IMG/VR virus record: IMGVR_UViG_3300005663_001084
Location: 24,929-88,928 of that record
Origin: a virus
Strand: one strand, 5' to 3'
Length of the DNA stretch: 64,000 nucleotides
Shown here piece after piece: positions 3,093 through 56,865 of this stretch (the first letter of the stretch is position 1; the number at the start of each line of letters is the position of its first letter). The translations under genes were made by a program, and so were the position numbers. The notes under the pieces are model-generated. The model was not told where the DNA came from and made no database searches. It saw only the letters and a list, made by a program, of their open reading frames with translations.

Positions 3093-4057
3093 CAGTACAT
3101 TCTCTGCCCAGGCCTGCCGCGTTGCTGCCCGCTGAAGTACCAGACCGCCTCGACCTCGGGGAACCGGTCGACGAGCCGCTTCACGACGACCTTCGCTTTC
3201 CGTGCAGCGATGGGATTGTCGAGCAGGTCCCAGGCCGTGATGCTGGCCTCGCGCCGCTGAGGGTCGTAGCGTCCGCCGAAGTCAGGAGCGCCCTGAGTGT
3301 CGTAAATCAGGTTGTGGAACTTGTTCGGATCGACGCCTTCATCGCTGGCAACGCGCAGCCGACCTTCGTCCCAGATCCACGCGTCGGTACCTTCGCCGTG
3401 GCCGACGGTGAGGTAGTTGGCGGGGGCTTCGTCCAGGACCGCCTCGGCCCGGACCAGGGATTTGTCCTGGATCTCGTAGCCCTCAACGGCACCGACGTTC
3501 GCATAGTCGAAGCCTTGCAGGACCGCAACTTTCTGTTCGGCGAACCGACCGTGGACGATGTAGTAGGCAGCCTGCCCAACGACCTCGGTGAACAGCGCAG
3601 GCCGGGCTTCCACGGTAGCCAGCTTGGCGTGCGTGTTGTACGCGGCGAGTTCCCCACGGAGTGTGAACGGCTGACCGCGGGCGATGTGCGTGAAGTAATC
3701 GTGGACGGTCCGGAATAGCAGATTGTCCTCGACGCTGAAGACCGGGTGCTCAGAATCTCCGCTGTAGATTTTTAGAACGCCTGTCTCGCGGAAGTCCCGC
3801 TGCATTTCTTCAGACGACTCGTACGGGTCCTCGTCCGTGTACTCGACACGGGACCGGCCCAGGAACCGGCGAAACAGAATTTTGTTGCTGCTGTTGAGCG
3901 CCTCCCAGTGGCGGGCCGCGTCCGGGTCGTAACTGGGAGCCTCCTCGTAGGCGTCAGCGACGAGCCGCGCGTACTCGTTAAAATCTTTAAGTTCGAGCTT
4001 CTCGCGCACGTCCGCTTCGAGAAGCAGCTTCCGGATGGCTGTGCGGGTAGCGTCCAT
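3092..4057 (-). CDS. L-family protein 2 (321 aa)
   Basis: N-terminus MDATRTAIRKLLLEAD. The C-terminal approximately 110 aa are homologous to protein 1 (EGVDP..., AARKA..KRL...WYF). Confidence 0.7.
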   Translation of the reverse strand: MDATRTAIRKLLLEADVREKLELKDFNEYARLVADAYEEAPSYDPDAARHWEALNSSNKILFRRFLGRSRVEYTDEDPYESSEEMQRDFRETGVLKIYSGDSEHPVFSVEDNLLFRTVHDYFTHIARGQPFTLRGELAAYNTHAKLATVEARPALFTEVVGQAAYYIVHGRFAEQKVAVLQGFDYANVGAVEGYEIQDKSLVRAEAVLDEAPANYLTVGHGEGTDAWIWDEGRLRVASDEGVDPNKFHNLIYDTQGAPDFGGRYDPQRREASITAWDLLDNPIAARKAKVVVKRLVDRFPEVEAVWYFSGQQRGRPGQRMY

Positions 4058-9075: not shown

Positions 9076-9558
9076 TCACGCAATGGCAGGAAGCGTGACA
9101 GCGCGGAGCATCTCCAGGAGTTTGGGCCAATACTCCTCAACTGGAGATCCATCTTCGATGTACCGCATGCAGTACACGAAATCCTCTTCGGAGCGTTTGG
9201 CATGCAACTCGACCCAACCCTTCGACTCCCAGTACTTTAGAACCTCAATACGCTGCAAATACACCAACTCTGTGTGCAGCGCTTCCAACCGGCTTTGAGT
9301 GAAGTGGTGGCTATCCACAGTACTCAGCAGGCAGTTCCGGTCAACGACTTCCAGAATGGTCTCCAGGCTGAGCGTACCGACCAGGGCAGGTAGCTTCTTC
9401 AGCTTGTTCATAATCTCCAAGACCTGCTCATCGCGTACCGAGAAATCCCAGTCTTCCAGGATTCCCTGCACTGCGGTTCCCAGACTAGCTGCGGCCGTAA
9501 GCCGGTAGGCCTCCTCACAACGGGGCATCAGAATCCTGTCGTCATCTGGTCTGCTCAT
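9076..9558 (-). CDS. hypothetical protein; paralog of 2131..2622
   Basis: The ATG sits 6 nt after the GATAAT of a class-1 promoter. Shares the YWPKLLEML block with its paralog. Confidence 0.6.
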   Translation of the reverse strand: MSRPDDDRILMPRCEEAYRLTAAASLGTAVQGILEDWDFSVRDEQVLEIMNKLKKLPALVGTLSLETILEVVDRNCLLSTVDSHHFTQSRLEALHTELVYLQRIEVLKYWESKGWVELHAKRSEEDFVYCMRYIEDGSPVEEYWPKLLEMLRAVTLPAIA

Positions 9559-9605
9559 AACAGTATTATCGGATCGGGGCGGCTATTTAGCCAAGGAAAA
9601 TTATC
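9559..9605 (-). promoter_or_regulatory. class-1 conserved leaderless promoter
   Basis: The reverse complement reads aattttccTTGGCTAAATAGCCgcCCcGATCCGATAATactgttATG. Confidence 0.65.
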
Positions 9606-11514
9606 CGGCAGCGTTTAACCGCTCAACCGCCTTGGAGAACGCAAGAACACGTAAGTAGGTAGTGTCTCTCACTTTTCCTGAAATCGCCTCGATGATCTTT
9701 TTTGCAGTACACTCGGCGATCCTGGCCCCTCTGGACAGTTCCTTCACAGAGTATCCCGCACACAGCGAGCGCATCACATGCGTGTCGACGAACACGGGAA
9801 GGTCCTCCCAGTGCCGGAGGCATACCTGCATCAGCATCCGCTTAAACAAATCCTTTTCCACACTGACCTGGGCACGCGCTATGCCGGAGACAAGCGCGCT
9901 GCCCTTCCGAGCCCTAGGTTGCCGTGGGCGATTTACCTTCGGACGCTTGACCACGCGAGTCCTCGCCTCTTTCAAGGCCTCGGCCGCTTGCGTGATCTGA
10001 TCAGCCCAGTGCTGCCGAACCCGACGGCCGGGCTTGTCCAAGTCGTAGAGGTACTCGTAAATGGTGTACCGTTTCATCCCGGTCACTTCCGCTACAACGC
10101 TGGCGGCCATCCCTCGAATCAGTGGCGCAATCTCCGAGAGCAGCACCGACCGTATAGGATTACAACGCAGTTGTACTTCCCGAGCCACCTTCGCTGCACA
10201 AGCACCCACGCAGTACCGGGACCGCCAGTTGAGCGGGAGGTCCGCCTTGCAGACGCAACACGCACGATAAGCCAGGGGCAGGTCTGGGCGAACGGTACCA
10301 AAAGCTGCCTGACTCACACGAACAATTCCCACGCTGACCTCGGCCACAACCTTTTGCTGCGTCTGCCCGGCGGCGTAGCGTTCGCGGATATCGCGGATGA
10401 GATCGTCATCGTCGAACCAATCCGGCTTTGGCTCTCGCAGCAACGCCTGTAACCGATACCGCTCCTTCTGCTTGGCTTCTACGAATTTCTCCAAACATTT
10501 CGTAGAACAATAAACCCAGCGACTGGGCGGCAAAGGAGACTTCCCACACTGCTTACATACGGTGCCAACCTGACTTTCCTTCCGCTCCTTCTTTAGCTCC
10601 CTCGACCGCCGAACCCCAGCGACCGCGCGCACCTGGGCGTGTCCCGCCGCGACACACTCACCCGTACAGTACTTGATGTACTTTCTTGGTCTTCCGAATC
10701 GGACGTAGAAGCGGTTGCATTTCGCACACCGTGGAGCGACCCGACCGCGACGCGTTCGCTGCTTCTTGCTTGGTGTAACCGGTTTATTGCCTATGAGGAA
10801 GTTTGCCGCATCTGCCTGCATTCCGTCGTAAGCGACGTCCAGCGCGGCTTTGCGAAGACGCACGCGCATAGCCTTCTGCCCACAGCCCCTACGCTGCGTC
10901 GAGCTTGGGCAGAACAGGGGCAGCTTGCCACCCTTCGGCGGTCGGCGAGCTTTGAATGTTTTTTCACAGTGCGCACAGACGATACTGATTGCACGAAGCG
11001 GGATCAGGGGAAGGTGCTTGTACGTCTTTCCAACCGCGACAGCGTATACCGATGCCGAGCAGACATCGAACTCCTCGGCCAGGGAATAGGATGTCTGACC
11101 ATCCGCCCAACGATCCCGGACTTCCATTACCTCGGCGTCGCTAAACAGTCCTCTACTGCCCCGACGACTCCGCCCTCTCGGGATAGTCCTTGCCCGGACG
11201 TCGTTTTCTATGGCACGCGCCTTACGGATTGCATACTTGGACGCGGCCTCACCGATCTGAGGGTACAGCGCCCGGTAGCTCCGCTTCTTAACGACGTCTT
11301 TGCAGGCGTCGTCACAGTACTGCTGATTGTAATTCTCGGCGTAAAAAGGCCCCTCGCAGGCGTTACACTCTCGGGCAGTGTCCCAGGCCCAGGTCTTACC
11401 CCGCAAAATATTACCGACGCAGGACTTATCTACGCTGTACGTCTTCGCAATACGTGCCCGGCTCCACCCCTGCCGGGCGCGCTTCCGAATCAGATCCGCC
11501 CGGCGGCGAGTCAT
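9601..11514 (-). CDS. multi-domain DNA-binding protein with four to five tandem HTH plus zinc-ribbon modules
   Basis: Repeated HTH-like segments: RARQGWSRARIAKTYSV, RDRWADGQTSYSLAEEF, RERYAAGQTQQKVVAEV. Each is followed by Cxx C...YC(S/T)xxC zinc ribbons. The start is taken at the internal Met MTRRRADL. Confidence 0.6.
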   Translation of the reverse strand: MTRRRADLIRKRARQGWSRARIAKTYSVDKSCVGNILRGKTWAWDTARECNACEGPFYAENYNQQYCDDACKDVVKKRSYRALYPQIGEAASKYAIRKARAIENDVRARTIPRGRSRRGSRGLFSDAEVMEVRDRWADGQTSYSLAEEFDVCSASVYAVAVGKTYKHLPLIPLRAISIVCAHCEKTFKARRPPKGGKLPLFCPSSTQRRGCGQKAMRVRLRKAALDVAYDGMQADAANFLIGNKPVTPSKKQRTRRGRVAPRCAKCNRFYVRFGRPRKYIKYCTGECVAAGHAQVRAVAGVRRSRELKKERKESQVGTVCKQCGKSPLPPSRWVYCSTKCLEKFVEAKQKERYRLQALLREPKPDWFDDDDLIRDIRERYAAGQTQQKVVAEVSVGIVRVSQAAFGTVRPDLPLAYRACCVCKADLPLNWRSRYCVGACAAKVAREVQLRCNPIRSVLLSEIAPLIRGMAASVVAEVTGMKRYTIYEYLYDLDKPGRRVRQHWADQITQAAEALKEARTRVVKRPKVNRPRQPRARKGSALVSGIARAQVSVEKDLFKRMLMQVCLRHWEDLPVFVDTHVMRSLCAGYSVKELSRGARIAECTAKKIIEAISGKVRDTTYLRVLAFSKAVERLNAAG

Positions 11515-12152
11515 CTTTTGCGTTTTTTGCTTGCCTTGGTGCGCAATAGCTGTTGGATCTTCTTGATCACGGTGCCCCGAGTGACGCGGTACCGCGTTCC
11601 GGTCGACATAATGGCCCATACGACGCCCTTGTCATCCAGTTCCGCGTCCGCGACGAACGGGACGGTCTTGCGGGTCCGGTTGAGCGGCAGCTTCGGCCTA
11701 GTGAACCCGAGCGCATCCGACAGAGGACGCGGGTCGGCGATCTCCAGGGCTTTGTCGATGGCCTTGTCGATCTTGACCCGGGTGATGCCGCCCTGGTTCT
11801 GCTTGACCCGCAGCATGTTCAGGTAGCTCGCACCGATCCCGCGCATCATGGCCACCTTGAGCGACTTGTCGGGCAGGTTCCCCCGGCCGACTTCGAGCAT
11901 CACCTTGAGGTGCTCCAGGCTGCGGAACAGGACGCCGTGCTCGACGAGGCAGCGGTCCGTGAACTTGACGAACTCCTCGGGGGGCAGCTTATCAGACACT
12001 TCGACCATGATGTACGAGACCTCCAGAAGGAAGTCGGACTCGGCCTCCCCGTACTGGTCGATGATGCGCATCGCGGCGGCTGCGGACTTGACTGCGCGGA
12101 TCTCCTTCATCGTGGTGTAGGACAGCTTGCGGCGCGTTTTAACTTTGGGCAC
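11511..12152 (-). CDS. hypothetical protein
   Basis: ORF; basic C-terminal tail KKRKR. Confidence 0.5.
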   Translation of the reverse strand: MPKVKTRRKLSYTTMKEIRAVKSAAAAMRIIDQYGEAESDFLLEVSYIMVEVSDKLPPEEFVKFTDRCLVEHGVLFRSLEHLKVMLEVGRGNLPDKSLKVAMMRGIGASYLNMLRVKQNQGGITRVKIDKAIDKALEIADPRPLSDALGFTRPKLPLNRTRKTVPFVADAELDDKGVVWAIMSTGTRYRVTRGTVIKKIQQLLRTKASKKRKR

Positions 12153-12585
12153 GGTGCTTCTCCTTGTGTGGAGGTAACATTTTGTACGTAGATTCCATCA
12201 GGTCCACCTCGACCAGCTTCGCCAGTTCGTCCGGTAGGGCCATGATGCTCGTGATGATGTCAAAGTGGTCGGTGACGCCTTCTGCGGTGATGCCATCAGA
12301 CATGCCGTCCGCGATCCAGTCCATCAGGATCAGGAAGTCCGTCAGATCGTAGGCAAACCCACTGTCTGCGTGTCGACGCTCCCAATAGCGATCCAGGTAC
12401 TTCTCGGCGCGGACAACTGCCCCAGCATCGCACAGGGAGGGGTACGCATCGCAGTGCTGAACGGTCATCTGCTCGACGGTGGCCGTCAGCCACTGCTTGA
12501 TCTCGTAGCCAGTGCAGATATCAGCGATCTGGGGTACTTCGGCGTCCATACCTGTATCATCGGGGTGGCCGGAATCGAAGCTCAT
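12139..12585 (-). CDS. hypothetical acidic protein
   Basis: ORF directly downstream of a class-1 promoter. Confidence 0.5.
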   Translation of the reverse strand: MSFDSGHPDDTGMDAEVPQIADICTGYEIKQWLTATVEQMTVQHCDAYPSLCDAGAVVRAEKYLDRYWERRHADSGFAYDLTDFLILMDWIADGMSDGITAEGVTDHFDIITSIMALPDELAKLVEVDLMESTYKMLPPHKEKHRAQS

Positions 12586-12640
12586 AATAGTACTATCGGA
12601 TTCGGACAGCTATTTGGTCAGGTAATTTTGTGGGTCAAGC
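12586..12640 (-). promoter_or_regulatory. class-1 conserved leaderless promoter
   Basis: The reverse complement reads cacaaaattacCTGACCAAATAGCtgTCCgaATCCGATAGTactattATG. Confidence 0.65.
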
Positions 12641-14773: not shown

Positions 14774-14836
14774 GGGCAGCAGTATACCTGGATATTCGAG
14801 GATTGCGAAATTGAAACGGGCAAAAATTTTGTGTGG
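14774..14836 (-). promoter_or_regulatory. class-2 upstream motif with a TATACT leaderless -10
   Basis: The reverse complement reads CACACAAAATTTTTGCCCGTTTCAATTTCGCAatcctcgaatatccaggTATACTgctgcccATG. Confidence 0.55.
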
Positions 14837-16391: not shown

Positions 16392-16460
16392 GGCGAAAAC
16401 ATCATATCAGGGAATCCGGGGATCTCGAAATTGAAACGGCCCAAAATTTTGTGTGTTCGG
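16392..16460 (-). promoter_or_regulatory. class-2 upstream motif
   Basis: The reverse complement reads CGAACACACAAAATTTTGGGCCGTTTCAATTTCGAGatccccggattccctGATATGatgttttcgccATG. Confidence 0.5.
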
Positions 16461-17761: not shown

Positions 17762-18060
17762 AATGTATCCTCAAAACGTATCTTCTCCAACGTACCAGGA
17801 AATTAGGCGATTTCAAAGAGTAAAGGTGAAAAATTTCTGTGTGTTCGCCTGGGCCACCCCCACCCACCCCCTTTCTATCCCACAGGGGACCCCTGATATC
17901 CAAGGGATAGAAAGGACCCCCCTCCCAGGGGCCGGTGTACCGGCCTGGGGCGTCACTGGGCTGCCCACCGGCCCGCAGAGCGGGCTTGTGGGTCACAGGT
18001 GGCTGGGAGTGAGCGACAACAGGTGTTGAGGTGCACAGGTGAGCGGCAACGATGTTCCAC

Positions 18061-18426: not shown

Positions 18427-18954
18427 ATGGAAGAGCAGTGGAGGGTTATCCCCAGCGTCCCGTACTACGAGATCAGCGACCATGGTAGGGTTAGACGACT
18501 GGTGCCAGCTATTGGTACCTGGGTTGGCAGGGTCAAGACACCCTACGTCACAGCCAACGGCTACCTGAAGATCTCGTTGTCCGTGGACAAGAAGAGGTTC
18601 CAGCGCTTCGTCCACAGGTTGGTGGCAGAGGCGTTCATCGGTCCGATCCCAGACCTGCACCACGTCCATCACCTGGACCACGACAAGCAGAACAACCGGG
18701 CCACGAACCTGGAATGCCTGTCCCGCCGCCAGAACCAGCAGCTTACCCACACCACGCCGGTCAAGCGCAGCGCCATGGGCGGCATCCCTGAGATGCTGGT
18801 CCAGGCCTGGGCCAGGGGCTGGATGTTATGCGACGTGGCCGCTCAGCTTGAAGTGGACGAGGCACAGCTTAGCCGCTGGCTGCTACGGGAGGAGCTACCC
18901 AACGGTCGGCAGGCTGAGATCAGCCAGCGCCTGTGGTCGCTCGTGATAGGCTAG
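18427..18954 (+). CDS. HNH homing endonuclease (NUMOD4 plus HNH_3 type)
   Basis: Motifs PYYEISDHGRVRRL and HHVHHLDHDKQNNRATNLECLSRRQN. Confidence 0.75.
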   Translation: MEEQWRVIPSVPYYEISDHGRVRRLVPAIGTWVGRVKTPYVTANGYLKISLSVDKKRFQRFVHRLVAEAFIGPIPDLHHVHHLDHDKQNNRATNLECLSRRQNQQLTHTTPVKRSAMGGIPEMLVQAWARGWMLCDVAAQLEVDEAQLSRWLLREELPNGRQAEISQRLWSLVIG

Positions 18955-19176: not shown

Positions 19177-20166
19177 TCAGGCCACCGCCTCGACCAGACG
19201 GCCAGGGCCGGTGGGCTCAGTTACGAGGTCGCCGCCGAACAGCGCGTGGTACCGCGTCGTCGCCTCGACCCAGGCCTCAGCCACGTGGCAGTTGGGAATG
19301 CGCTTGCCCTTCACGCCGCTGAGGTAGCGGGCCAGGGCCTTCAGGTCGAAGCAGGCCGGGGTCGGCCGCACGGTCAGTTGTTCGTACTCGCCATGGTAGC
19401 CGTCGCTGAGAACGATCAGCTTGAACTCGAACTCCAGCCTCCACATATCGGTATCATCTGACACGGTCATATTGCCATGGCTGGTCTCTATGACACCCCC
19501 GGCCAGTGGCCCCTCCCACGTTATGGTGTAGCCAGTCGAGGTGTAGCCCTCACGCGGCTCCACATTCATGCGTGAGAGGCCGTAGCGTTCCTGTGACGCC
19601 ACGATCTCCACGTCACCATAGGCTCGCTTGGTCCGCTGGCTGAGGAAGTTCTCCTGAAGCGCAGCGGGCGGGTTGAGCAGTACGTCGATGATCCGGCGGG
19701 CCAGTGGCCGCAAGCCGTCACGATACTGATCCACCCGGTCGATGCTGGCGTAGTCGACCTCGTAGTTGTTGAGCGTATCCATGTAGCCGATTTGCCCGCG
19801 ACCGTCCGGACGGTCGCTGATCTCGTTGTTCACGTTCCAGGTCTTCCCGGCATCGCGCCCCTCGGCCCGGGTTGTCTCCCACATGTCGTCCATGCGCCGC
19901 TGGCAGAAGATCTGGACGAACTTCTCCAGGTGGTTCTCGTCGCTCGCCAGCATGGCCAGGGTCTCCGGCCGGTGGCCCGAGATCCACTCCAGCAGGACCA
20001 TCACGCCGTATTGGTAGTAATCATCCTGGCACAGGGACGGGTCGCGCGTGATCCTGGCGAAGCGGGCCGCCACGCGGCCGATGATGATATCGCTGCGCGA
20101 CAGCACATCTGAGAGGACAGCGTCGGATGACACCGGCGCGTCCGGCAACGGGAATTTAGGTGGCAT
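19177..20166 (-). CDS. hypothetical protein (329 aa)
   Basis: Long ORF on its own between two non-coding regions. No confident motif. Confidence 0.5.
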   Translation of the reverse strand: MPPKFPLPDAPVSSDAVLSDVLSRSDIIIGRVAARFARITRDPSLCQDDYYQYGVMVLLEWISGHRPETLAMLASDENHLEKFVQIFCQRRMDDMWETTRAEGRDAGKTWNVNNEISDRPDGRGQIGYMDTLNNYEVDYASIDRVDQYRDGLRPLARRIIDVLLNPPAALQENFLSQRTKRAYGDVEIVASQERYGLSRMNVEPREGYTSTGYTITWEGPLAGGVIETSHGNMTVSDDTDMWRLEFEFKLIVLSDGYHGEYEQLTVRPTPACFDLKALARYLSGVKGKRIPNCHVAEAWVEATTRYHALFGGDLVTEPTGPGRLVEAVA

Positions 20167-20919
20167 GGGGTGGGGCTCTCCTGCACTCGGGTCCTATCCG
20201 CCAGTCACCATACCGGGACGCGCCACGCGCGTCAAGGACTTTTCGTGAGATTTGCTACATTTTCTTGTGGGAGTTTATCAACAGGTCGTCAACAACGCCT
20301 CCTCCGCCCGGCCGCCAGCGTAGTCAGAGCCAATACCTGTGTAGCATACGTCCAGTCTCACCGGGGTGGAGCGGAGGAGGGGCCAACGAAGTGTTCAGAA
20401 ACTCGCGGAAATCTCGCGTGCCAGCGTGACCCCTCGCACCCCCGACACTTATCTTCTGTCTATGTGTAGGCTATCACTACACTTAGTTGTGTAACACGTT
20501 ACATTGCTACATATAGCATGCTACATCCTTCTCACCTGCCCGATCCCCAGGTCGCTGCACCGTGACCACCCGACATCTGTGTCCGCCGGTGGCGGCTGGT
20601 GACTCTGTAACCCGTTGGCCTCATTGACCTCACTCATTGTTGCACTTTTGTTGCAGTCTTATTTCAATGGGCTGCCGGTAGCCGCTGTCCAAGTTGAGCC
20701 GCTGTCTGGACTGGGGGCGCTGGGCTGTCCACATCTTGGACTGCCAGCTTATCCACATACTGTCAACATGACCATGTCGTTATGGCGCAGTGACACACCT
20801 AACGCATCCCAATCCAGTTCAATTTGGAGCCTATTATTTACATTGAGCCGTTGTTGTTGCAGTTATTTACAGTTACTGCGTTGAGGGCACCGGCCGCACG
20901 GCGGCCCGGCCCATGGGAG

Positions 20920-24721: not shown

Positions 24722-24964
24722 TCATGCCGTCACGCCCATCTCCTTCAGCTTTTCAAAGACATCCTCGGGGATCTTCTCCCAGAAGACGATGTGCCGGAGC
24801 TTGTAGCCGCCCTGCTGAGGTTTATGGAGCCAGAGCAGCGGGTGCTTGCTAGTGATGAGGCTGCGGAAGGCGGGGCCTTGGACATGCCCGCCGTGGTCAG
24901 GCGTGCTCAGGTAGTACTGCGTCTCTTCGGTGTAGCAGACGTAGTATCGGGTCCGGCTGGGCAT
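24722..24964 (-). CDS. hypothetical protein
   Basis: ORF. Confidence 0.4.
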   Translation of the reverse strand: MPSRTRYYVCYTEETQYYLSTPDHGGHVQGPAFRSLITSKHPLLWLHKPQQGGYKLRHIVFWEKIPEDVFEKLKEMGVTA

Positions 24965-28037: not shown

Positions 28038-28333
28038 CCGGATACCCCGCCGTCTTCGGCCTCTCTAGCCTCTCTAGCCTCTCTAGCCTCTCTGGCCCGT
28101 ATGGCTGCGAGGGCTCTGTCGCGGTCTACGTCGTTGGCGTGGACATGCCAATGCTGCGACTTACGCGCTGCGGCCAACTCCTGCCGCAGCCCTTCGGCGT
28201 ACTCATCCAGCGCGGCGGTGATGACTCTCTCAGTACAGCCACTATGGAGACCTCCAAAACGTCGGCAACAACTCTCCAAGAGTGTCATTACAGTCTCGTC
28301 CACGATCTTGTCCCGCAGTTCGTTGGTCATCAC
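28034..28333 (-). CDS. NELRDK-family protein (member A) with AREAREAREARE repeat
   Basis: Blocks MMTNELRDKIV and AALDEYAEGLRQELAAAR. The C-terminal (ARE)x4 is encoded by a 9-bp tandem repeat. Confidence 0.5.
   Translation of the reverse strand: MMTNELRDKIVDETVMTLLESCCRRFGGLHSGCTERVITAALDEYAEGLRQELAAARKSQHWHVHANDVDRDRALAAIRAREAREAREAREAEDGGVSG
28063..28098. repeat. 9-bp tandem repeat (CCTCTCTAG) x4 inside a CDS
   Basis: gcctctctagcctctctagcctctctagcctctctggcc. Confidence 0.8.
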
Positions 28334-28605
28334 TCCTCCCCTTCGTCTTCAGCCTGCGATTCGCGCCAGCGTTTGAGCAGGGCCTCGCGGGCTTTCTCGT
28401 CCATCCGCATCATCGAAAGCGGGTAGTACCGCGCGCCGTCGTCATCCGTGATCCTCACGTGAGGCTCGGCGAATCGTTTGATCCCCTCGCGCACTCCAAC
28501 TCTGTAACCCACCCCGATGCCAATCAGGAAAGCGACAAACGCGCAAACGATCACCATACAAAACCACGACCAATCCCATAATGAGTCCGGCTTTGCCATC
28601 TTCAC
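28330..28605 (-). CDS. membrane protein
   Basis: Transmembrane segment WFCMVIVCAFVAFLIGIGVGY. Confidence 0.4.
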   Translation of the reverse strand: MKMAKPDSLWDWSWFCMVIVCAFVAFLIGIGVGYRVGVREGIKRFAEPHVRITDDDGARYYPLSMMRMDEKAREALLKRWRESQAEDEGEE

Positions 28606-29216
28606 TCCTCCCCGCCGCCTTCAGCTAGCTCGGCCTCGATGCCTTCCAGGATTTTTGTAGCGGCCTCACGCTCGGCATCGCTGACAGGTCCAGTACCGAG
28701 TACGATAAGAATCTCTCCATTATCCCCGGTTATGCCGATCTGTTGACCACTGGCGGAATCTCGAAGAAACCCCAGCGCGTCCTTTTGGTACTGTTCTTTG
28801 GTTAGGACCTTCATTTTTCCTGTGTCGTCTTCGTCCCGCAACTTCTCCTCGTCGTCTTTGGCTTGTATGGTAGCGAGAGCTTTCTTAGCGCAGTGAGCCC
28901 ACTGCGCTATGTCTAGGTACCAAGTCAAAGCCTTACGCGCGACGGCCAACTTGATTCGGTAGCCTTCGTTTTGAACCCGATAATTCTCTGCCAACATTTT
29001 AACAGACCGCAAACAAGCAGATTGATCTTCTAGCTCGTGCCGCAACCCCTCGGCGTATTCGTTCAGCGCGGCGGCGATGATGGGACTCACCTTTTCATAT
29101 GCTTTGTTCCGCAACGCCGCGTATTCTTTACAATCCATGTCGCAGCGGTCGCCGAAAACGCCGGACACAGCCGCTGTTATCTTCCGTGCGATATTTTCCT
29201 GTCGTTCGTCGCTCAT
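28602..29216 (-). CDS. NELRDK-family protein (member B)
   Basis: Block AALNEYAEGLRHELEDQ. Confidence 0.5.
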   Translation of the reverse strand: MSDERQENIARKITAAVSGVFGDRCDMDCKEYAALRNKAYEKVSPIIAAALNEYAEGLRHELEDQSACLRSVKMLAENYRVQNEGYRIKLAVARKALTWYLDIAQWAHCAKKALATIQAKDDEEKLRDEDDTGKMKVLTKEQYQKDALGFLRDSASGQQIGITGDNGEILIVLGTGPVSDAEREAATKILEGIEAELAEGGGEE

Positions 29217-29244
29217 CGTTCTTCCTTTCCGCCGTCTTCGACGG

Positions 29245-29349
29245 CTACCACCATCCCGTGATGACCCCGGCGATGAGAATCATATACCACACGACTATCA
29301 AGATCCCAATAATGAGCCACACCTCCGGTGGCGGGGTGTCCGGGTTCAT
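29245..29349 (-). CDS. possible small membrane peptide (34 aa)
   Basis: MNPDTPPPEVWLIIGILIVVWYMILIAGVITGWW, ATGA-coupled to 29346..29654. Not in the ORF track. Confidence 0.3.
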   Translation of the reverse strand: MNPDTPPPEVWLIIGILIVVWYMILIAGVITGWW

Positions 29350-29654
29350 GCCTTCTCGCCTTTGTCGGCCTGCATGGCTTTGAGCGCTTCACGGGCGGTG
29401 TCGGCCTGCCCCTGCGCCCAGGGTGATGCACCGCCACTATAGCGTCTGATTTCCTTCAGTGCGGTCATCGCCACATCCAAATTATCCCGCAGCCCCTTGG
29501 CGTACTCGTCCAGCGCGTCGGCGATGATGGGAACTGCCACGTCCCAGCGCACCGAGATATGGTTTGCGCCATAAAAAGTGCAATCTTCTTCGAGAGTCTC
29601 CGACAATGCCCGCGCGATCTTGTCCCGCAGTTCGTTGGAGTCAGGCATCTTCAT
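29346..29654 (-). CDS. NELRDK-family protein (member C)
   Basis: Blocks MKMPDSNELRDKIA and ADALDEYAKGLRDNL. Confidence 0.5.
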   Translation of the reverse strand: MKMPDSNELRDKIARALSETLEEDCTFYGANHISVRWDVAVPIIADALDEYAKGLRDNLDVAMTALKEIRRYSGGASPWAQGQADTAREALKAMQADKGEKA

Positions 29655-30096
29655 CCTCCCCGCCGTCCTTGTAAGCCTCTTGAATGAGCTTCAATCCTTT
29701 GCGTATCTGGTCTGGGTTGTCGCTCTCGGAGATCTTGTGCAGCACGACTGAACGAATCTTGGCCAGGAATTCGACTTTATCAATGATTAGAGCCTCTTCG
29801 GGCTGCATGGCTGCGAGAGTTTCTCGGGTAATCTCGCGACACCGAATAGTCTCTTCGGACTTACCGGTAATCCATGTAGTACATATTTCTTGGATCTTAC
29901 CCAATGCCTCCCGACTTACGGCCAACTTCTCTCGCAGCCCCTCGGCATACTCGTCCAGTGCGGCCGCGACGTAGCTAGGTAACTTGTCCAGGCCTTGGAT
30001 CATGCGTGGCTCGTGGACAAGCCATGCGTCGGCCCATTTATGTGACCACTCGTCCGCGACCTTGTCCCGCAGTTCGTTTTTGTCAGGCATCTCCAT
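29641..30096 (-). CDS. NELRDK-family protein (member D)
   Basis: Internal start MEMPDKNELRDKVA. Block AALDEYAEGLREKL. Confidence 0.5.
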   Translation of the reverse strand: MEMPDKNELRDKVADEWSHKWADAWLVHEPRMIQGLDKLPSYVAAALDEYAEGLREKLAVSREALGKIQEICTTWITGKSEETIRCREITRETLAAMQPEEALIIDKVEFLAKIRSVVLHKISESDNPDQIRKGLKLIQEAYKDGGEDEDA

Positions 30097-30400
30097 CTCC
30101 CACTTTCTCTTTGATCGCGTCCAGGGCATCTTGCGCGGCCAGCACGTGACATAAAAAACCGTGTCGAGGCTCGGTAACATCTTCATCGGTAATCACGTGC
30201 GGGCAGCTACAGCCTCTGGCGATGATGAACTTAAAAGCATTTGCAGCCACGTACAGGGCTTCGACCTGCTTTTGGCCCCGAGAGTCTTTCAGCCTCCTCA
30301 CCATCACCCCGCGATGATGAAGGCAATACCTCTTACTGTCGAGCCTTGGGTCAGTGTAGATACCAATAGTGCCACAGTCCAGAAATTCACATTTAGCCAT
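30083..30400 (-). CDS. Cys/His-rich protein
   Basis: MAKCEFLDCG...CLHH...CSCPH. Confidence 0.45.
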   Translation of the reverse strand: MAKCEFLDCGTIGIYTDPRLDSKRYCLHHRGVMVRRLKDSRGQKQVEALYVAANAFKFIIARGCSCPHVITDEDVTEPRHGFLCHVLAAQDALDAIKEKVGDGDA

Positions 30401-31370: not shown

Positions 31371-31626
31371 CGGTTGACTCCTGCGGCTCGAACAAAGCGC
31401 TGGTCACGATCTCCTTCACCGCGCTCACGTTACCCATGATGACGTAGTGGCGGGCGCAGATCAGGGCGTGCCGGAGCCGGTTGATCTCGTTGACGCACTC
31501 CTTCATGTCGACGGTGTAGGTATTCTCCCAGTGGCCATCATCCGGGTCCACCGTGGCCACGAACTTCTGGTGCTCCCGCAGGCGCTTCAAGGTCATCAGG
31601 GCTGGGGTTCCTTGCTCCATGACCAT
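31360..31626 (-). CDS. hypothetical protein
   Basis: The ATG lies 6 nt after the GATAAT of a class-1 promoter. Confidence 0.5.
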   Translation of the reverse strand: MVMEQGTPALMTLKRLREHQKFVATVDPDDGHWENTYTVDMKECVNEINRLRHALICARHYVIMGNVSAVKEIVTSALFEPQESTDGH

Positions 31627-31665
31627 ATTATCGGATCGGCAGGGCAGTTTGCCCAGAATTTCTTG
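31627..31665 (-). promoter_or_regulatory. class-1 leaderless promoter, minus-strand member of a divergent pair
   Basis: The reverse complement reads aaattCTGGGCAAActGCCcTgCCgATCCGATAATatggtcATG. Confidence 0.6.
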
Positions 31666-31698
31666 CCCAAATAGCCCTCTGAATCCGATAATACAGGC
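31650..31698 (+). promoter_or_regulatory. class-1 leaderless promoter, plus-strand member of a divergent pair
   Basis: gaatttcTTGCCCAAATAGCCcTCtgaATCCGATAATAcaggcATG. Confidence 0.65.
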
Positions 31699-31953
31699 AT
31701 GAAGACCAAGACGGCCCGGCCCATGTATCTGATCGTGCCCGACAACGCGCCGCCCTACGTACTCAAAGGCAGGATGACTGTGGCCATCAAGGACAAGCTC
31801 GGTGGCTCGCGCAACAAGCTGCTCAAGATTGAAGACGGTGTCGCGTCGCAGCTATCTATGACCGGACACTTCACCGAGAAGGACCCGTGGTCCTGGGTCG
31901 AGGTGCCACGGCAGACGTTCGCGACGCCGGAGAAGGAGGCTCCCAGTGACTGA
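31699..31953 (+). CDS. hypothetical protein
   Basis: Leaderless start 6 nt after the -10. Confidence 0.55.
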   Translation: MKTKTARPMYLIVPDNAPPYVLKGRMTVAIKDKLGGSRNKLLKIEDGVASQLSMTGHFTEKDPWSWVEVPRQTFATPEKEAPSD

Positions 31954-34856: not shown

Positions 34857-35786
34857 ATGAAAGAAGTCAGCCCCCCGGCGGCAGATGTCGGCGTCCTAGT
34901 CGGCAGGTTCCAAGTCCACAAACTCCACGAAGCACACCTGGAACTGATCAGGCACGTGGTCAAGCACCACGACCGCGTGATGATCTTCCTGGGCATGTCG
35001 CCGTGCCGCGTCACGAGGAACAACCCCCTCGACTTCGACGCCCGCAAAGCGATGATCCAGGACGCCTTCCCGGACGTAAGTGTCTACTACGTCAGGGACT
35101 GCCGACCCGATGACCTGTGGTCTAAGCGCCTCGACAACATGATCTATGAGCACATCAAGCCGGGCGCGAAGGTCCTGCTGTACGGTGGGCGCGACGCGTT
35201 CATCAAGCACTACGAAGGCAAGATCCCCACGCGCGAGTTGGAGCAGGAGGTCTTCATCTCGGGCACCGCCGTGCGCAACACCATCGCCAACACCGTGCCC
35301 AAGACGACCGACTTCCGCGCCGGGGTCATCTGGGCCTCCCAGAATCAGTACCCGCGTGCCATCCCCACCGTCGACGTGGCCGTCTGGGACGAGACCGGCG
35401 AGAAGCTCCTACTGGCCCGCAAGCCCGACGAGGATCTCTACCGCTTCATCGGCGGCTTTGCCACTGGCCCAACGTACGAGTCCGACGCGCGGCGCGAGGT
35501 CGACGAGGAAGCGCACATCGCCATCACCGATCCAGTCTACGTGGGCTCGCATCAGGTCGACGACTGGCGCTACCGCAGCGAGGCCGACAAGATCGTCACG
35601 CTCCTATTCGAGGCCAAGCGGCTCAGCGGCAACCCACGTCCCGACGATGACATCGCTGAACTCAAGTGGTTTGATTTCGCAACACTCCGCGACGAAATGG
35701 TCGTCCCGGAGCACCGTCCACTCCTCAAGATGCTTCAATGCAAGAGGGAGACACACCATGAAGACGAACATCGTACTGGCGACTGA
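34857..35786 (+). CDS. nadM: bifunctional NMN adenylyltransferase/Nudix hydrolase (NadM-Nudix type)
   Basis: N-terminal cytidylyltransferase-fold block VLVGRFQVHKLHEAHLELI. Nudix box GGFATGPTYESDARREVDEEAHI. The 3' end overlaps the nadV start. Confidence 0.8.
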   Translation: MKEVSPPAADVGVLVGRFQVHKLHEAHLELIRHVVKHHDRVMIFLGMSPCRVTRNNPLDFDARKAMIQDAFPDVSVYYVRDCRPDDLWSKRLDNMIYEHIKPGAKVLLYGGRDAFIKHYEGKIPTRELEQEVFISGTAVRNTIANTVPKTTDFRAGVIWASQNQYPRAIPTVDVAVWDETGEKLLLARKPDEDLYRFIGGFATGPTYESDARREVDEEAHIAITDPVYVGSHQVDDWRYRSEADKIVTLLFEAKRLSGNPRPDDDIAELKWFDFATLRDEMVVPEHRPLLKMLQCKRETHHEDEHRTGD

Positions 35787-37140
35787 CAGCTACAAGCTCA
35801 CCCACTGGAATCAGTACCCACGCGGCACGGAGAAGGTCTACTCCTACTTCGAGGCGAGGCCCGGCGCGAAGTACCGCGACACCGTGTTCTTCGGTCTCCA
35901 GTACATCATCGCCGAGTACCTCGCAGGCCACGTCGTCACGACCCAGAAGATCGACGAGGCCGAGGCGTTGGCAGCCCAGCACTTCGGCAATCCGAACATC
36001 TTCAACCGCGCCCGCTGGGACCACATCGTCGACCAGCACGACGGCCGCCTGCCTGTCCGCATCAAGGCGGTGCCCGAGGGCACGCCGGTCCCTGTCAACA
36101 ACGTGATGATGACCATCGAGAACACGGACCCGGCCTGCTACTGGCTGACCAACCACCTGGAGACGATCCTCACGCACGTGTGGTACCCGTCCACCGTGGC
36201 CACGCAGAGCCGGGAGGCCAAGCGGATCTGCAAGAGGTACCTCGAAGAGACTGCCGAGTCCGCTGGCGGCCTGGACTTCATGCTGCACGACTTCGGCTAC
36301 CGTGGCGTGTCGTCGGTGGAGTCGGCTGGCCTCGGCGGCGCTGGTCACCTCGTCAACTTCCACGGCACTGACACCATCGCGGCGATGGAACTGCTGCGTC
36401 AGTACTACGATGCCGACGTACCCGCGTTCAGCGTACCGGCCACCGAACACAGCGTGATGACCGCGCACGGTGCAGACGGTGAGAACTGGGTGCTGTCGCA
36501 ACTGCTCGATGCCTACCCTACCGGCATCCTGTCCATCGTGATCGACTCGTACGACTACCGGAAGTTCATCAAGATGGCAGGCACGACGTTCAAGGATCGC
36601 ATCCTTGCCCGCGACGGCAAGGTCGTCTTCCGTCCCGACAGCGGAGATCCGTGCGAGGTGACACTGGAGGTCCTGGAACTGCTGGGCGAGTACTTCGGGT
36701 CAGCCGACGGTAAGCCCGGCTACAAGATCCTGCACCCCCAGGTCGGCGTGATCTGGGGCGATGGCATCGATCTCGAAGACATGGAGCGCATCCTGGCCGA
36801 CATCACCTACGCGGGTTGGAGCGCCGAGAACATGGTGTTCGGCATGGGCGGCGGCCTGCTCCAGAAAGTCAACCGCGACATCCAGCGCTTCGCGTTCAAG
36901 AGCAGCTACCAGGAGCGCGGCGGCGAAGGCCACGACATCTTCAAGGAGCCCATCGACAAGACCAAGACCAGCAAGAAGGGCCGACTGAAGCTGGTGCGCC
37001 TCGAAGGCGCGCACGGCTCCACGCTGACCACCGTCGGCATCGATGATCCACGCGAGGACCTGCTGGAGACGGTCTTCGAGGGCGGTCAGGTCCTGAAACG
37101 TTACAGCCTGGACGAGATCCGCGCGAGAGCAGCACTGTAA
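35758..37140 (+). CDS. nadV: nicotinamide phosphoribosyltransferase (NAMPT/NadV)
   Basis: MKTNIVLATDSYKLTHWNQYP...FGYRGVSS...HGTDT. It is co-linear with the NAMPT family throughout. The track ORF 35146..37140 is over-extended into the nadM alternate frame. Confidence 0.85.
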   Translation: MKTNIVLATDSYKLTHWNQYPRGTEKVYSYFEARPGAKYRDTVFFGLQYIIAEYLAGHVVTTQKIDEAEALAAQHFGNPNIFNRARWDHIVDQHDGRLPVRIKAVPEGTPVPVNNVMMTIENTDPACYWLTNHLETILTHVWYPSTVATQSREAKRICKRYLEETAESAGGLDFMLHDFGYRGVSSVESAGLGGAGHLVNFHGTDTIAAMELLRQYYDADVPAFSVPATEHSVMTAHGADGENWVLSQLLDAYPTGILSIVIDSYDYRKFIKMAGTTFKDRILARDGKVVFRPDSGDPCEVTLEVLELLGEYFGSADGKPGYKILHPQVGVIWGDGIDLEDMERILADITYAGWSAENMVFGMGGGLLQKVNRDIQRFAFKSSYQERGGEGHDIFKEPIDKTKTSKKGRLKLVRLEGAHGSTLTTVGIDDPREDLLETVFEGGQVLKRYSLDEIRARAAL

Positions 37141-43403: not shown

Positions 43404-45230
43404 CTACTCAAAAACGTGAATTTCAGTCGGGCTGAACTCGGAGCGGAGCATTCCGATCAACTGGTTGGTGAGTTTGAAGCGTCCAGGGTTCATGGCGCTG
43501 AGCCTTCCGGTGTCACCCTCATAATGACCTTTCCAGTACTGGTCGGGGTTCGGCCAGAGCATACCATGCGACCACGTGGGCAAGCCTCGTCCCTTCTCTT
43601 CTTGTTGATCGACGTAAGCCTGCAACGCTTCGGGATCGCTTAGGTCAACACCCTCGTCCTCGATGTTAGGCATGTTAAGCTGATGGTAACGCTGGATTTC
43701 GCCGTGCATCAGAACCCAAATCTCATGGGTCAGCGGATCGGTGTACTCCATCCCGTCGTCATACGAGGTGTTCCCGTGTCCGAGGTCGAAGTAAAATACG
43801 GATGTACCTTCATCGTCGATCTTGTGGAGCGTGACATCGCTGGCGACGACAGATTCGGGGAGGCTCTCCTTGTCCATCACCACAAGAGCCGGAAGCGCCT
43901 CGACACCCAGGACGTGGAGAGCGTCGTACCGGTGGCTGCCCTCCAGGACGTACGGGCCTTCTTTGTCGACAACCACGATCAGCGGCACGATCCAACCACT
44001 TGCAGCGATCTGCTGCGCCAGTTCGCGGGCCGCCTCGTTGTCATCTCCAGAAGTCTCGAAAGCAGACAAGGGAACGGCGCGGATGCCGGACAGCACCTCG
44101 TAGTCCAGAAGACTGGCCGCGATGGAACTGGTATTTGGAACTTCGTCACCCACGCGGAGGCCGCTGACCTCGTCACCAGCCCGTGGGTAGAGTTCGTCCT
44201 CCTGGGCCTCGGCGAGTATTCGACGTATCACACGTCGGCTTTCGGTCAGCGCCTCGTCCTGCCCGGCGTAAAACCTGCGGATCGCACCCATGATGCGGCG
44301 CGAGTTTTCTCCGGGATCGAACATGTAGGACTTATTCCGTTCGGCCTTCCAGTAGTAGTCGTTACGCTCGTCGAATTCGCCCAGGCCGTCCTCCATATCG
44401 ACCGGCATGCCCTCGGCGCTGAAGTTATCGATCCAGCCCTCCAAGGTCCGGTACTGCGCCGAGGTGGGCTGGACCATCATGTCGAGGCCGCCGTCTTCAG
44501 GCATCAGACGGATCGCGCCCAGGCTCATAAACTCCTGCATGCCGCGCGTGCCGCCCCCGCCGTAACCGATGTTCCGATGGTCAAAGCCGCGCCCGTAGCC
44601 GCCGCCCCCGCCCGAGATCATGTCGCCGTCAGGCAGCAAGTAGAACGCATCGGTGAAGCTGCTCGTGATCCCGAACCGGCCCTTGGCTTTCTCGAACGGG
44701 TCGGCCTCGTCCTCCGCGTCCTCTACGCCGGGCCAGTCCTCCATGGACAGCGGCATCTCGTTGTCTAGCTTTCGGAGAACCTGGAGCGGGATCTCGCGGT
44801 ACCTGGACTCCTGGCCGTTCTGCACACTACGGAATACGGAGCGAGCGTACTCTCCGGCCGACCAGCCGAACTCGTCACTGATCACTCCAATGATCCGGGC
44901 GTGGAAGTCCAGCAGTATCTGGGGTTCGTTCTGGACGAGCGCAGCCATCTCTCCCGGATTCCAGTTGAGTGCGTCGTAGACCGCGCTCCAGATAGTCCGG
45001 TGCTCACCCTCGTCGAACGTAGCCAGCGTGTACTCGGGGAACAGTTCAGTGACAATCCTCTCGTAGCGCTGCCAGTCGTAGTCCCTGTCCTCCTCACGGT
45101 TTACCGCGTCCAGGAAGAACTCCCGCAGGTGATCGTACGTCATGTTCCAGACGTGCCGAGGCTGGGTGGGAGCCTCAACGCTGGCCTGCTCGGCCAACAC
45201 CTGCCGCATCACTAGGCGAGTGGCATCCAT
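43404..45230 (-). CDS. L-family protein 14 (about 608 aa) with internal leader copy, ParB-like domain and a C-terminal domain shared with protein 13
   Basis: N-terminus MDATRLVMRQVLAEQ. Internal copy ESRRVIRRILAEAQ. ParB-like motif YVLEGSHRYDALHVLG. C-terminal FYFDLGHGN...LPTWSH...EIHVFE. Confidence 0.7.
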   Translation of the reverse strand: MDATRLVMRQVLAEQASVEAPTQPRHVWNMTYDHLREFFLDAVNREEDRDYDWQRYERIVTELFPEYTLATFDEGEHRTIWSAVYDALNWNPGEMAALVQNEPQILLDFHARIIGVISDEFGWSAGEYARSVFRSVQNGQESRYREIPLQVLRKLDNEMPLSMEDWPGVEDAEDEADPFEKAKGRFGITSSFTDAFYLLPDGDMISGGGGGYGRGFDHRNIGYGGGGTRGMQEFMSLGAIRLMPEDGGLDMMVQPTSAQYRTLEGWIDNFSAEGMPVDMEDGLGEFDERNDYYWKAERNKSYMFDPGENSRRIMGAIRRFYAGQDEALTESRRVIRRILAEAQEDELYPRAGDEVSGLRVGDEVPNTSSIAASLLDYEVLSGIRAVPLSAFETSGDDNEAARELAQQIAASGWIVPLIVVVDKEGPYVLEGSHRYDALHVLGVEALPALVVMDKESLPESVVASDVTLHKIDDEGTSVFYFDLGHGNTSYDDGMEYTDPLTHEIWVLMHGEIQRYHQLNMPNIEDEGVDLSDPEALQAYVDQQEEKGRGLPTWSHGMLWPNPDQYWKGHYEGDTGRLSAMNPGRFKLTNQLIGMLRSEFSPTEIHVFE

Positions 45231-45688
45231 CAGCCCCAGGCTTCCTTGTCGTGCTGTACCAGCGCGCGGGTCATGTCCTGGGTGAGCGGCTCGACGTTGA
45301 TGGTGTCTTCCGACGGGACCGCAGCCATCCGCTTGAGCCACTGCCCTTCCGCCCCGGCCTGCGAAAGCGGGTCTGCCGTGTCGACCTCCCACTCCTCGCC
45401 GCTCGGGCTGAACGTGACAATGGAGATGTCGCCGCTCCCCATGGCCTGATTCAGATCCCAGTCCATCTTCGAGGCCCAGCGTATGGCGTCGAACTTGTTA
45501 TCGAACGCGAAGATTTCACCCTGGCCGTAGCGCTCGCCAGTCCCAGACATGGCCCAGTTGGAGGGCTGCATCGGGACGAGCCCACGCTTCTGGATATCTG
45601 AGACCCGGTCAGTGGGGGTGACGTGGTAGTACTCGACGCCCTGGGCCTCGGTGAGTATCCGTCTGAGGGCTCTGCGGGTGGGGTCCAT
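45230..45688 (-). CDS. L-family protein 15; possible ART-like fold
   Basis: Internal start MDPTRRALRRILTEAQ. Motifs YYHVTPTDR, GEIFAFD and EEWEVD. Confidence 0.6.
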   Translation of the reverse strand: MDPTRRALRRILTEAQGVEYYHVTPTDRVSDIQKRGLVPMQPSNWAMSGTGERYGQGEIFAFDNKFDAIRWASKMDWDLNQAMGSGDISIVTFSPSGEEWEVDTADPLSQAGAEGQWLKRMAAVPSEDTINVEPLTQDMTRALVQHDKEAWG

Positions 45689-46852: not shown

Positions 46853-47335
46853 ATGCCAGAAGATCACGACTGGAAAGCGATCAGCCAACTGATGGAGCAG
46901 GCGTCCGTCCTGGCCCAGCGGTACAATCTGTGCATCTGGAACGGCATCAAAGCTGACGGCAGCAGGCACATCGAAGCCTACCGCATGAAGCGTGGCGAGA
47001 AGGACGTTGTGCTGACTACCCCGAGCATGGAAAAAATGATCGAGAAGCTCACCGTGATGGCTGTAGAGGGGAAGCTGGAACATCACGACCGCGCCGTCGA
47101 AGACATCGACCCAGAGATCTGGCACCTGCACATCGACAGCGCTGCGTTCAATCTGCTGCACAAGACACAGGATCTGCACCAGACGTTCAGTCATCTGATC
47201 GGCCCGGTAGGGCTGGTGTACGACCGGTACTGCGTCATCGACATGCAGCTACGGAACCTGTGCCTATCTATCCAAAACCTAACCAGTTCGATACGCAAAG
47301 TCCCCATTCGAGAAAGAGAGAAGAAGCATGGATAA
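46853..47335 (+). CDS. hypothetical protein
   Basis: Internal start MPEDHDWKAIS. Confidence 0.45.
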   Translation: MPEDHDWKAISQLMEQASVLAQRYNLCIWNGIKADGSRHIEAYRMKRGEKDVVLTTPSMEKMIEKLTVMAVEGKLEHHDRAVEDIDPEIWHLHIDSAAFNLLHKTQDLHQTFSHLIGPVGLVYDRYCVIDMQLRNLCLSIQNLTSSIRKVPIREREKKHG

Positions 47336-48002
47336 TCCGATCATCGTGGCCCTCGATGGCATCGACATGTCGAAGGCTATCGCTCTCGCGCAGCTATTGA
47401 AGGATGACGTGTGGGGGTTCAAGGTCAACGACCTGTTCTTCCAGCACGGCATCCAGGCTGCCAACAACCTCGGGGTCTTTGGCAACGTCATGCTCGATGG
47501 GAAGTTCCACGACATCCCGAATACCGTGGAGAACACCACGAAGAAGATCGCAATCTTCGGCCACCCGGCTCCCGGCATCGTTACCATACACGCCTCCGGC
47601 GGCCCTGCGATGATACGGGCTGCTGTTGAGTACCTTCCGGGAAAGGTTGCGGCTGTCACCGTGCTCACGTCATTAGACGAGGACGCCTGCATGCACGTTT
47701 ACAACGTGCGGCCTGAGGTTGCCGTCAAGCGCCTCGCCAGTATGGCCCACGAATACGGAGCCAGCTTCATTGTGTGCAGCCCTCTGGAACTTGCCGCGCT
47801 CAAAGACATCCCTCGTCCCAAGATCGTCCCAGGCATCCGCCCGCTCTGGTACCAGGAGGCTGACGATCAGGCGCGGAAAATGACTCCTGCCGAGGCAATG
47901 GAAGCCGGGGCCGGGTTCCTGGTCATGGGCCGTCCGATCCTGCGCGCGGACGATCCGGTCGAAGCCGCGCAGCGCACACTCGAAGAGATCAAGAAGGGGT
48001 AA
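47328..48002 (+). CDS. pyrF: orotidine 5'-phosphate decarboxylase
   Basis: IVALDGIDM...FKVN; LDGKFHDIPNTV (catalytic DxKxxDIPNT); HASGG; VTVLTS; PGIRP; GRPI. All OMPDC signature blocks are present, in order. Confidence 0.85.
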   Translation: MDNPIIVALDGIDMSKAIALAQLLKDDVWGFKVNDLFFQHGIQAANNLGVFGNVMLDGKFHDIPNTVENTTKKIAIFGHPAPGIVTIHASGGPAMIRAAVEYLPGKVAAVTVLTSLDEDACMHVYNVRPEVAVKRLASMAHEYGASFIVCSPLELAALKDIPRPKIVPGIRPLWYQEADDQARKMTPAEAMEAGAGFLVMGRPILRADDPVEAAQRTLEEIKKG

Positions 48003-56864: not shown

Positions 56865-56865
56865 T

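Follow-up and report, generated by a model that had tools for sequence, protein, structure and literature searches.

A nuclease-free array of homing-endonuclease-type helix-turn-helix units and predicted zinc modules in a phage-like element

Introduction

I-TevI, the GIY-YIG homing endonuclease of phage T4, binds DNA through a domain in which a Zn finger, a helix for the minor groove and an HTH (helix-turn-helix) are wound, in an extended monomer, along about 20 bp, and the same domain acts as a cleavage-independent autorepressor by occluding the promoter at its own operator (PMC2988022, PMC1564403). A protein that resembles it in being a string of putative Cys4 zinc fingers, basic or minor-groove segments and HTHs, and that appears to belong to the homing-endonuclease lineage, is encoded on the minus strand at 9601-11514 of a 64,000-nucleotide stretch of viral DNA (positions 24,929 to 88,928 of IMG/VR virus record IMGVR_UViG_3300005663_001084; the whole stretch is referred to here as the window). 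Whereas I-TevI joins a GIY-YIG nuclease to a single Zn-helix-HTH, this protein (the target) is nuclease-free and has three HTHs and five predicted zinc modules. It gave no match to NUMOD1/3, and I-TevI was not significantly matched by either its sequence or its fold.

Several other groups of proteins invite comparison. Free-standing HNH_3 and GIY-YIG endonucleases (among them the product of 62317-63219 in the window, P0005, P0006, P0008 and P0009) share with the target the HTH consensus KLTxxxVxEIRxRYAxGExxxxLAxEFGVSxxTIxxIvxGKTWKHV, and a few of them (P0112, P0141) have an N-terminal CxxC..FCSxxC module, but they carry their own nuclease domain and their HTH repeats are contiguous, with no interleaved zinc modules. 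Metagenomic tandem-HTH proteins (P0002, P0004, P0007, P0011, P0012 and P0074) contain three to about ten copies of that HTH and no Pfam nuclease; they differ from the target in being without Cys4 modules, and have no known function or informative name. The archaeal CRISPR repeat-binding proteins Cbp1 and Cbp2 (PDB 2LVS; PMC3597662) bind repeated DNA by tandem homeodomain-like HTHs, but they have two to three HTHs only and no zinc modules. Modules of the FCS/TRASH type (Pfam zf-FCS, DUF2116 and YHS; ribosomal L24e) resemble those of the target in the pattern CxxC-x(n)-[YF]C-x3-C and, in low-confidence models, in a second Cys pair that starts a basic helix, although all the target matches to them lie under the curated thresholds and the target fold is not confidently modelled.

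The explanation favoured here, with modest confidence, is that the target is a nuclease-free, zinc-stabilised DNA binder of the beads-on-a-string kind, built from the recognition modules of homing endonucleases.

Gene and protein

As the first-pass annotation of this DNA had proposed, an intact open reading frame (ORF) for a protein of 637 amino acids (aa) was found, with its stop codon at 9601-9603.

9601..11514, minus strand: target gene, 637 aa, 100% identical to LCGC14_0163540

The identical entry is a "hypothetical protein" from marine sediment metagenome, carried on a 224,854-bp contig from Loki's Castle sediment. Two starts are possible for the ORF, ATG 11619 (672 aa) and ATG 11514 (637 aa). 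The latter shares ATGA with the TGA of the upstream ORF, was picked by gene callers on four independent assemblies and is where the N-termini of both orthologues align; the 637-aa form is therefore regarded as the real one. The 672-aa reading was rejected, as it would overlap the upstream partner gene by 109 nt and disagrees with the orthologue N-termini.

With a pI of 10.1 and a net charge of about +69 the protein is strongly basic, as are the linkers between its modules (net +2 to +11). The window itself has a GC content of 59%, consists mostly of small ORFans and contains no structural genes, and tblastn and megablast searches against 50,697 GenBank phages gave zero matches. We infer that the source is a large phage or phage-like element.

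Module architecture

The layout of the target can be written as [HTH-Zn][HTH-Zn][Zn][Zn][HTH-Zn]; the 197 residues that come after this, up to the C-terminus, have no match. Its parts, all on the minus strand, are as follows.

11386..11496, minus strand: HTH unit 1 (aa 7-43), tri-helical, homing-endonuclease-type; profile i-E 1.7e-14; AF2 pLDDT 72-94
11302..11367, minus strand: zinc module 1 (aa 50-71), CNAC...YCDDAC; its four Cys invariant in the three orthologues
11011..11145, minus strand: HTH unit 2 (aa 124-168), i-E 6.2e-19; AF2 pLDDT 65-82
10882..10977, minus strand: zinc module 2 (aa 180-211), CAHC...FC-x8-C, atypical spacing
10654..10728, minus strand: zinc module 3 (aa 263-287), CAKC...YCTGEC, without a preceding HTH
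10495..10557, minus strand: zinc module 4 (aa 320-340), CKQC...YCSTKC, without a preceding HTH
10303..10407, minus strand: HTH unit 3 (aa 370-404), i-E 1.3e-8; closest to unit 2
10198..10260, minus strand: zinc module 5 (aa 419-439), CCVC...YCVGAC
9604..10194, minus strand: C-terminal 197 aa (aa 441-637), basic, predicted helical, no relatives detected

The strongest evidence for the HTH repeats is the match of all three units, at the i-E values listed, to an external profile for which 149 other proteins had supplied 434 HTH repeat units; the target had served as the query by which those proteins were collected, which favours such a match and has to be counted against it, but the E-values far exceed a bias of this kind. 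HTH unit 3 is the most degenerate of the three, and a basic linker of 50 aa (aa 73-122, net +11) precedes HTH unit 2.

Self-comparison partly confirmed the internal repeats claimed in the first-pass annotation. In Smith-Waterman alignments scored against shuffled sequences, unit 2 and unit 5 (the unit that holds HTH unit 3) were clearly related (z = 9.2), with lower values for unit 1/unit 5 (3.0), unit 1/unit 2 (2.4) and zinc modules 3 and 4 (3.1). In a single-sequence comparison of the target with itself by hhalign, P was 0.007 for the pair HTH2/HTH3 and 0.17 for unit 1/unit 2. Two further candidate HTHs towards the C-terminus were dropped: aa 586-608 scored only 0.28 and aa 460-492 had no match to the HTH profile.

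Twenty of the 27 cysteines make up five motifs with the pattern CxxC-x(n)-[Y/F]C-x(3 or 8)-C, namely C50-C71, C180-C211, C263-C287, C320-C340 and C419-C439, and the third Cys is preceded by an aromatic residue in every one of them. Shuffled sequences contain a mean of 0.19 such motifs (0.013 when the aromatic residue is required); the maximum in 5000 shuffles was two, so that none reached five. The four to five repeats of an HTH plus a four-Cys segment described previously thus hold for the number of Cys4 motifs, but only three of these follow an HTH and two zinc modules stand alone. The reported periodicity of about 100-130 aa could not be upheld, since consecutive zinc modules start at irregular distances of 130, 83, 57 and 99 aa.

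Relationship to homing endonucleases

An exhaustive phmmer search of 1.84 billion representative proteins with the target as query yielded 206 matches at E<=1e-3, nearly all of them aligned to the HTH segments. The domains found among the 150 best of these 206 were HNH_3 (76), zf-His_Me_endon (26), GIY-YIG (11), NUMOD4 (12) and HTH_7 (102). In the relatives, the tandem repeat KLT..V.EIR.RYA.GE...LA.EFGVS..TI..I..GKTWKH lies downstream of the nuclease domains and occurs also in nuclease-free arrays, to which about half of the relatives belong. PHROG families named "endonuclease" matched the target at 1e-8 and 1.5e-7, in the HTH portions only. These sequence comparisons show that the three HTHs, all tri-helical, are homologues of the HTHs repeated in tandem in HNH_3 and GIY-YIG endonucleases.

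No nuclease domain was found in the target in Pfam (E<=10), PHROGs, NCBIfam or PDB; the only matches were to HTHs, those in Pfam and NCBIfam being sub-threshold. HNH_3 and zf-His_Me_endon gave no Pfam match at E<=10, nor did GIY-YIG and NUMOD (NUMOD1/NUMOD3), and the score for HTH_7, the resolvase-type HTH, lies under the Pfam gathering threshold (23.8 bits). Searches of PDB sequences with the target protein returned no match. Among natural PDB sequences, the HTH profile matched Cbp1/Cbp2 best (2LVS, E 9e-8); the target is not a Cbp1 member, as it reaches 18 bits with NCBIfam HTH_Cbp1 (NF040595) against an equivalog cut-off of 140.

Two free-standing homing endonucleases are encoded in the window itself. 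That at 62317-63219 (plus strand; 300 aa; phrog_3377 "HNH endonuclease", E 3.7e-68) carries a cluster of Cys in its N-terminal part, two internal repeats and, C-terminally, an HTH of the target's type, which aligns to HTH1 of the target with z = 9.4 and to HTH2 with z = 8.8. The second (18427-18954, plus strand; 175 aa) combines NUMOD4 and HNH_3. The N-terminal module of the HNH endonucleases P0112 and P0141, which is similar to the predicted zinc modules of the target, matches zf-FCS at 0.003-0.009, and both types of module therefore belong to the homing-endonuclease toolkit.

Nature of the zinc modules

Binding of zinc by the Cys4 sets is predicted from the enrichment of the motif and from the invariant ligands of zinc module 1, an indirect argument from sequence. 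The best profile matches of the modules were to Zn_ribbon_recom (E 0.0011; 19.8 bits against a cut-off of 25.3), DUF2116, described as a "probable treble clef" (0.0018; 18.7 against 26.8), the treble clef VATC (0.002; 18.4 against 26.6) and NinG (0.023), with a weaker match to YHS (0.065); the sub-threshold DUF2116 and VATC matches are those of zinc module 4. When a profile of eight zinc modules was compared with PDB sequences, the matches were trivial ones to the CxxCGKxF knuckle of C2H2 fingers, apart from L24e (0.13).

Structure models were of limited confidence. The mean pLDDT of AF2 was 39 on the single target sequence and 57 on aa 1-240 together with the orthologue P0003, where the HTHs alone were usable. 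Zinc modules 2 and 3 were modelled as a beta-hairpin followed by a helix, with the second Cys pair at the helix start (pLDDT 30-63), and Foldseek with the AF2 model against the PDB returned nothing below E 0.47. Taken together, the weak matches and low-confidence models suggest, if weakly, a treble clef (FCS/TRASH-like) rather than the classical zinc ribbon of the first-pass label.

Orthologues and partner gene

Only two orthologues of the target were found across all the databases searched. P0003 is a 240-aa protein of the form HTH-Zn-linker-HTH-Zn, encoded on the 54,958-bp contig Ga0255798_10000050 (L005) of JGI 3300023284, and it aligns to aa 1-240 of the target with 32-36% identity. The second, a truncated ORF, lies at one end of a Logan contig of 1.5 kb. 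In a word-indexed search of 5.8 billion proteins the target retrieved itself alone and the orthologue profile retrieved P0003 alone, and scans of IMG/VR, JGI metagenomes and GTDB genomes with the target and its partner gave no matches.

Across the three lineages the zinc module 1 ligands (C50, C53, C67 and C71, invariant in all members) and both N-terminal HTHs are kept at 31-36% identity, and no nuclease domain is present in the available sequence of any of them. In P0003 the first three Cys of zinc module 2 are kept, the fourth ligand there being probably a His. The target has in addition zinc modules 3 and 4 and the HTH3-Zn5 unit, which most likely arose by internal duplication, given that unit 5 most resembles unit 2. 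The C-terminal 197 aa found no relatives in any search and have no counterpart in P0003. The genes downstream of P0003 were considered as a split form of the C-terminal two-thirds of the target and discarded, as there was no similarity.

Each orthologue directly follows an ORFan of 212-218 aa that is 47-51% identical to the ORF upstream of the target, and in all three lineages the stop of this partner abuts or overlaps the orthologue start.

11511..12152, minus strand: partner gene, 213-aa ORFan, whose stop overlaps the target start (ATGA)

The partner has no match in Pfam, PHROGs, NCBIfam or PDB sequences, its alignment contains no recognisable conserved catalytic motif, and the neighbouring genes have no Pfam or PHROG assignment. 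Four of the 44 tested proteins of L005 have relatives in the window, the partner and target included, and the pair is placed differently relative to the other shared genes in the window and in L005. Conserved adjacency combined with different placement implies that the pair behaves as a conserved two-gene cassette. L005 itself is a distantly related phage-like contig. Its genes are led by Shine-Dalgarno sequences and include one of the sigma-70 family (19606-20244), and tRNA-like repeats occur near 3174-3359.

Operon and promoter element

The 45-bp class-1 element occurs in 16 copies in the window, against 0.26 expected. Its consensus is aTTTnCcTGcCcAAATAGCCcTCCcaATCCGATAATAcnGnTATG, and it comprises a sigma-70-like -35 (cTGcCc), an 18-nt conserved spacer AAATAGCCcTCCcaATCC and a -10 (GATAAT). 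In 11-12 of the copies an ATG or GTG lies 6-7 nt past the -10, and leaderless mRNAs are therefore indicated at those copies. Conservation extends well past the -35/-10 hexamers (aTTTnCcTGcCcAAATAGCCcTCCcaATCCGATAAT), and the conserved spacer suggests that more than a standard sigma factor reads the element.

Class-1 sites in the window: 1186, 9565, 12592, 14371, 15333, 16999, 20943, 31627
Class-1 sites, continued: 31671, 34791, 37200, 45750, 51108, 53798, 57723, 59930

Those of direct concern to the target are listed here together with the first gene of its operon.

9555..9599, minus strand: class-1 element, beginning 2 nt past the target stop and driving ORF 9558-9076 (ATG 9558)
12582..12626, minus strand: class-1 element, the nearest copy upstream of the target and the likely promoter of a three-gene unit
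12139..12585, minus strand: first operon gene, 148-aa ORFan, whose ATG follows the class-1 element with no leader

The target had been placed directly downstream of a class-1 promoter, but the copy at 9555-9599 lies downstream of the gene on the same strand and serves the next ORF. The 148-aa ORF (12585-12139) overlaps the 213-aa ORF (12152-11511), which in turn overlaps the target, and no promoter or terminator of note lies between the 12582-12626 element and the target; it follows that the operon starts at 12585 and has the target as its third, translationally coupled gene.

At 31617-31700 two class-1 elements stand back to back (31627-31648, minus strand; 31671-31692, plus strand) as a divergent pair at a strand switch. 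Another intergenic element, ATAyCAGGnAATyCGrGGATytCGAAATTGAAACGGnCnAAAATTTTGTGTG, is repeated in three copies (14784-14835, 16404-16455 and 17792-17843) and possibly represents another regulatory class. Iteron-like tandem DNA repeats were considered as candidate binding sites, and none was convincing.

Other features of the window

Sixteen minus-strand genes, with products of 111-608 aa, share a start of about 15 aa, MD(x)TR(x)(A/V)(I/L/M)R(x)(I/L/M)L(T/N)EA, right after which their sequences part. The common start looks like a tag or a signal for targeting at the N-terminus of proteins that are otherwise unrelated, or else like a conserved 5' mRNA element.

Shared-N-terminus gene starts, minus strand: 3092, 4057, 4431, 4907, 14773, 15867, 16391, 22706
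Shared-N-terminus gene starts, minus strand, continued: 23098, 40103, 41095, 41718, 43399, 45230, 45688, 63663

Auxiliary metabolism or DNA genes are present at 35146-37140, 47328-48002, 55076-56566, 56821-57687 and 43404-45392; their products include NAMPT (E 1e-42), OMP decarboxylase (2e-35), a fusion of a nucleoside deoxyribosyltransferase-like domain with NUDIX, an HD_4 protein, and a 662-aa protein with a weak ParB_N-like domain. Paralogous minus-strand genes at 28184-30097 contain repeated blocks of 40-46 nt about 445-856 nt apart (families D8 and D11), which suggests a tandemly duplicated small-gene family.

Discussion

If the target is indeed a DNA binder assembled from homing-endonuclease modules, it would, by analogy with I-TevI, be stretched out as a monomer over a long, asymmetric DNA site. 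The three HTHs would read the major groove, with the zinc modules and basic linkers serving as rigid spacers and touching the backbone or the minor groove. Bound without a nuclease, the target may cover or organise a particular site in the DNA of phage or host, one possible role being that of a repressor such as I-TevI is at its own operator; alternatively, it may deliver its co-translated partner to that site. Expression would come from the leaderless, sigma-70-like class-1 promoter, probably early in infection. The earlier description of a multi-site DNA-binding regulator survives in part: three homing-endonuclease-type HTHs, a pI of 10.1 and basic linkers point to a multi-module DNA binder, but the promoter context given for it was wrong.

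Several observations, besides the origin of the HTH profile noted above, weigh against this explanation. No DNA target could be inferred computationally. The zinc modules lie below every curated family threshold and are poorly modelled (AF2 pLDDT about 30 for module 1 and about 55-63 for module 2), and what they contact could be DNA, protein or RNA. With three members, the family is too small and too diverged for selection tests. As neither the C-terminal 197 aa nor the partner has relatives of known function, an enzymatic activity in them is possible.

The first-pass suggestion that the target recognises the repeated class-1 element, whether as a promoter-closing repressor or as a co-factor reading its spacer, is considered unlikely. 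The element is far more frequent than expected and is conserved as though more than a sigma factor reads it, its 45 bp could be spanned by a multi-module binder, and I-TevI provides a precedent for an endonuclease-type DNA-binding domain acting as a promoter-occluding repressor. There is, however, no direct evidence linking the protein to the element, and the target is expressed from such a promoter itself and so cannot be its initial activator. The 20.7-kb stretch of the 55-kb contig L005 that bears P0003 and its partner has zero copies of the element; the genes there are Shine-Dalgarno-led and the repeats are of other kinds. Moreover, single long sites, not many copies, are typical of homing-endonuclease HTH arrays.

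A split or novel homing endonuclease, with catalysis in the 213-aa partner or the C-terminal 197 aa and targeting by the HTH/Zn array, appears just as improbable. All homology detected for the target leads to the DNA-binding modules of homing endonucleases, the partner is conserved with it and tightly coupled to it, and the differing position of the pair among the genes shared by the two phages is what a mobile cassette would show. Against this, Pfam, PHROGs, NCBIfam and PDB sequences offered no nuclease-family match for either the partner or the C-terminus, the partner alignment is without a recognisable conserved catalytic motif, and P0003 is without any C-terminal region.

The target might also be the decaying and functionless remnant of a homing endonuclease that has lost its nuclease domain, although this seems quite unlikely. 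The homology of the HTHs fits such an origin, as do the intact free-standing endonucleases at 18427-18954 and 62317-63219, the degeneracy of HTH unit 3 and the lack of significance of the C-terminal HTH-like segments. The 1.9-kb ORF is intact all the same, with 20 of 20 motif cysteines kept; the ligands of zinc module 1 and the two N-terminal HTHs have been conserved in three lineages that are nuclease-free in the available sequence, in the same place after the same partner, and the large share of nuclease-free arrays among the relatives (about half) suggests a stable architecture.

A bolder proposal, which is quite doubtful, is that either the pair is an unrecognised two-component DNA-targeting cassette of large phages or the array is a dedicated reader of the 45-bp promoter element. 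In the former case a new catalytic activity would reside in the partner or the C-terminus, and the pair would represent a new split homing-endonuclease or DNA-modifying family; in the latter, the array would switch the whole early programme.

A non-specific nucleoid or architectural protein that coats DNA, also raised in the first-pass annotation, would fit the very high positive charge, the many modules and the long basic linkers, but is very unlikely because the HTHs are of the class that gives homing endonucleases their sequence specificity, because the gene comes third in an operon of ordinary kind and shows no sign of being very highly expressed, and because nucleoid proteins are typically small.

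Conclusions

The family is tiny and its proposed function is read from sequence; it is a rare design variant and no new kind of system, and its importance is modest, being that of an ORFan with a plausible role. What it suggests is that the recognition modules of homing endonucleases lend themselves to re-assembly and expansion and, with zinc modules set between them, can make up a large DNA binder that has no nuclease and that at least three divergent phage-like lineages have kept along with a partner gene. Mapping of its target site would add a natural, modular and monomeric reader of long DNA sites, and could give a function to the many nuclease-free tandem-HTH proteins of metagenomes.

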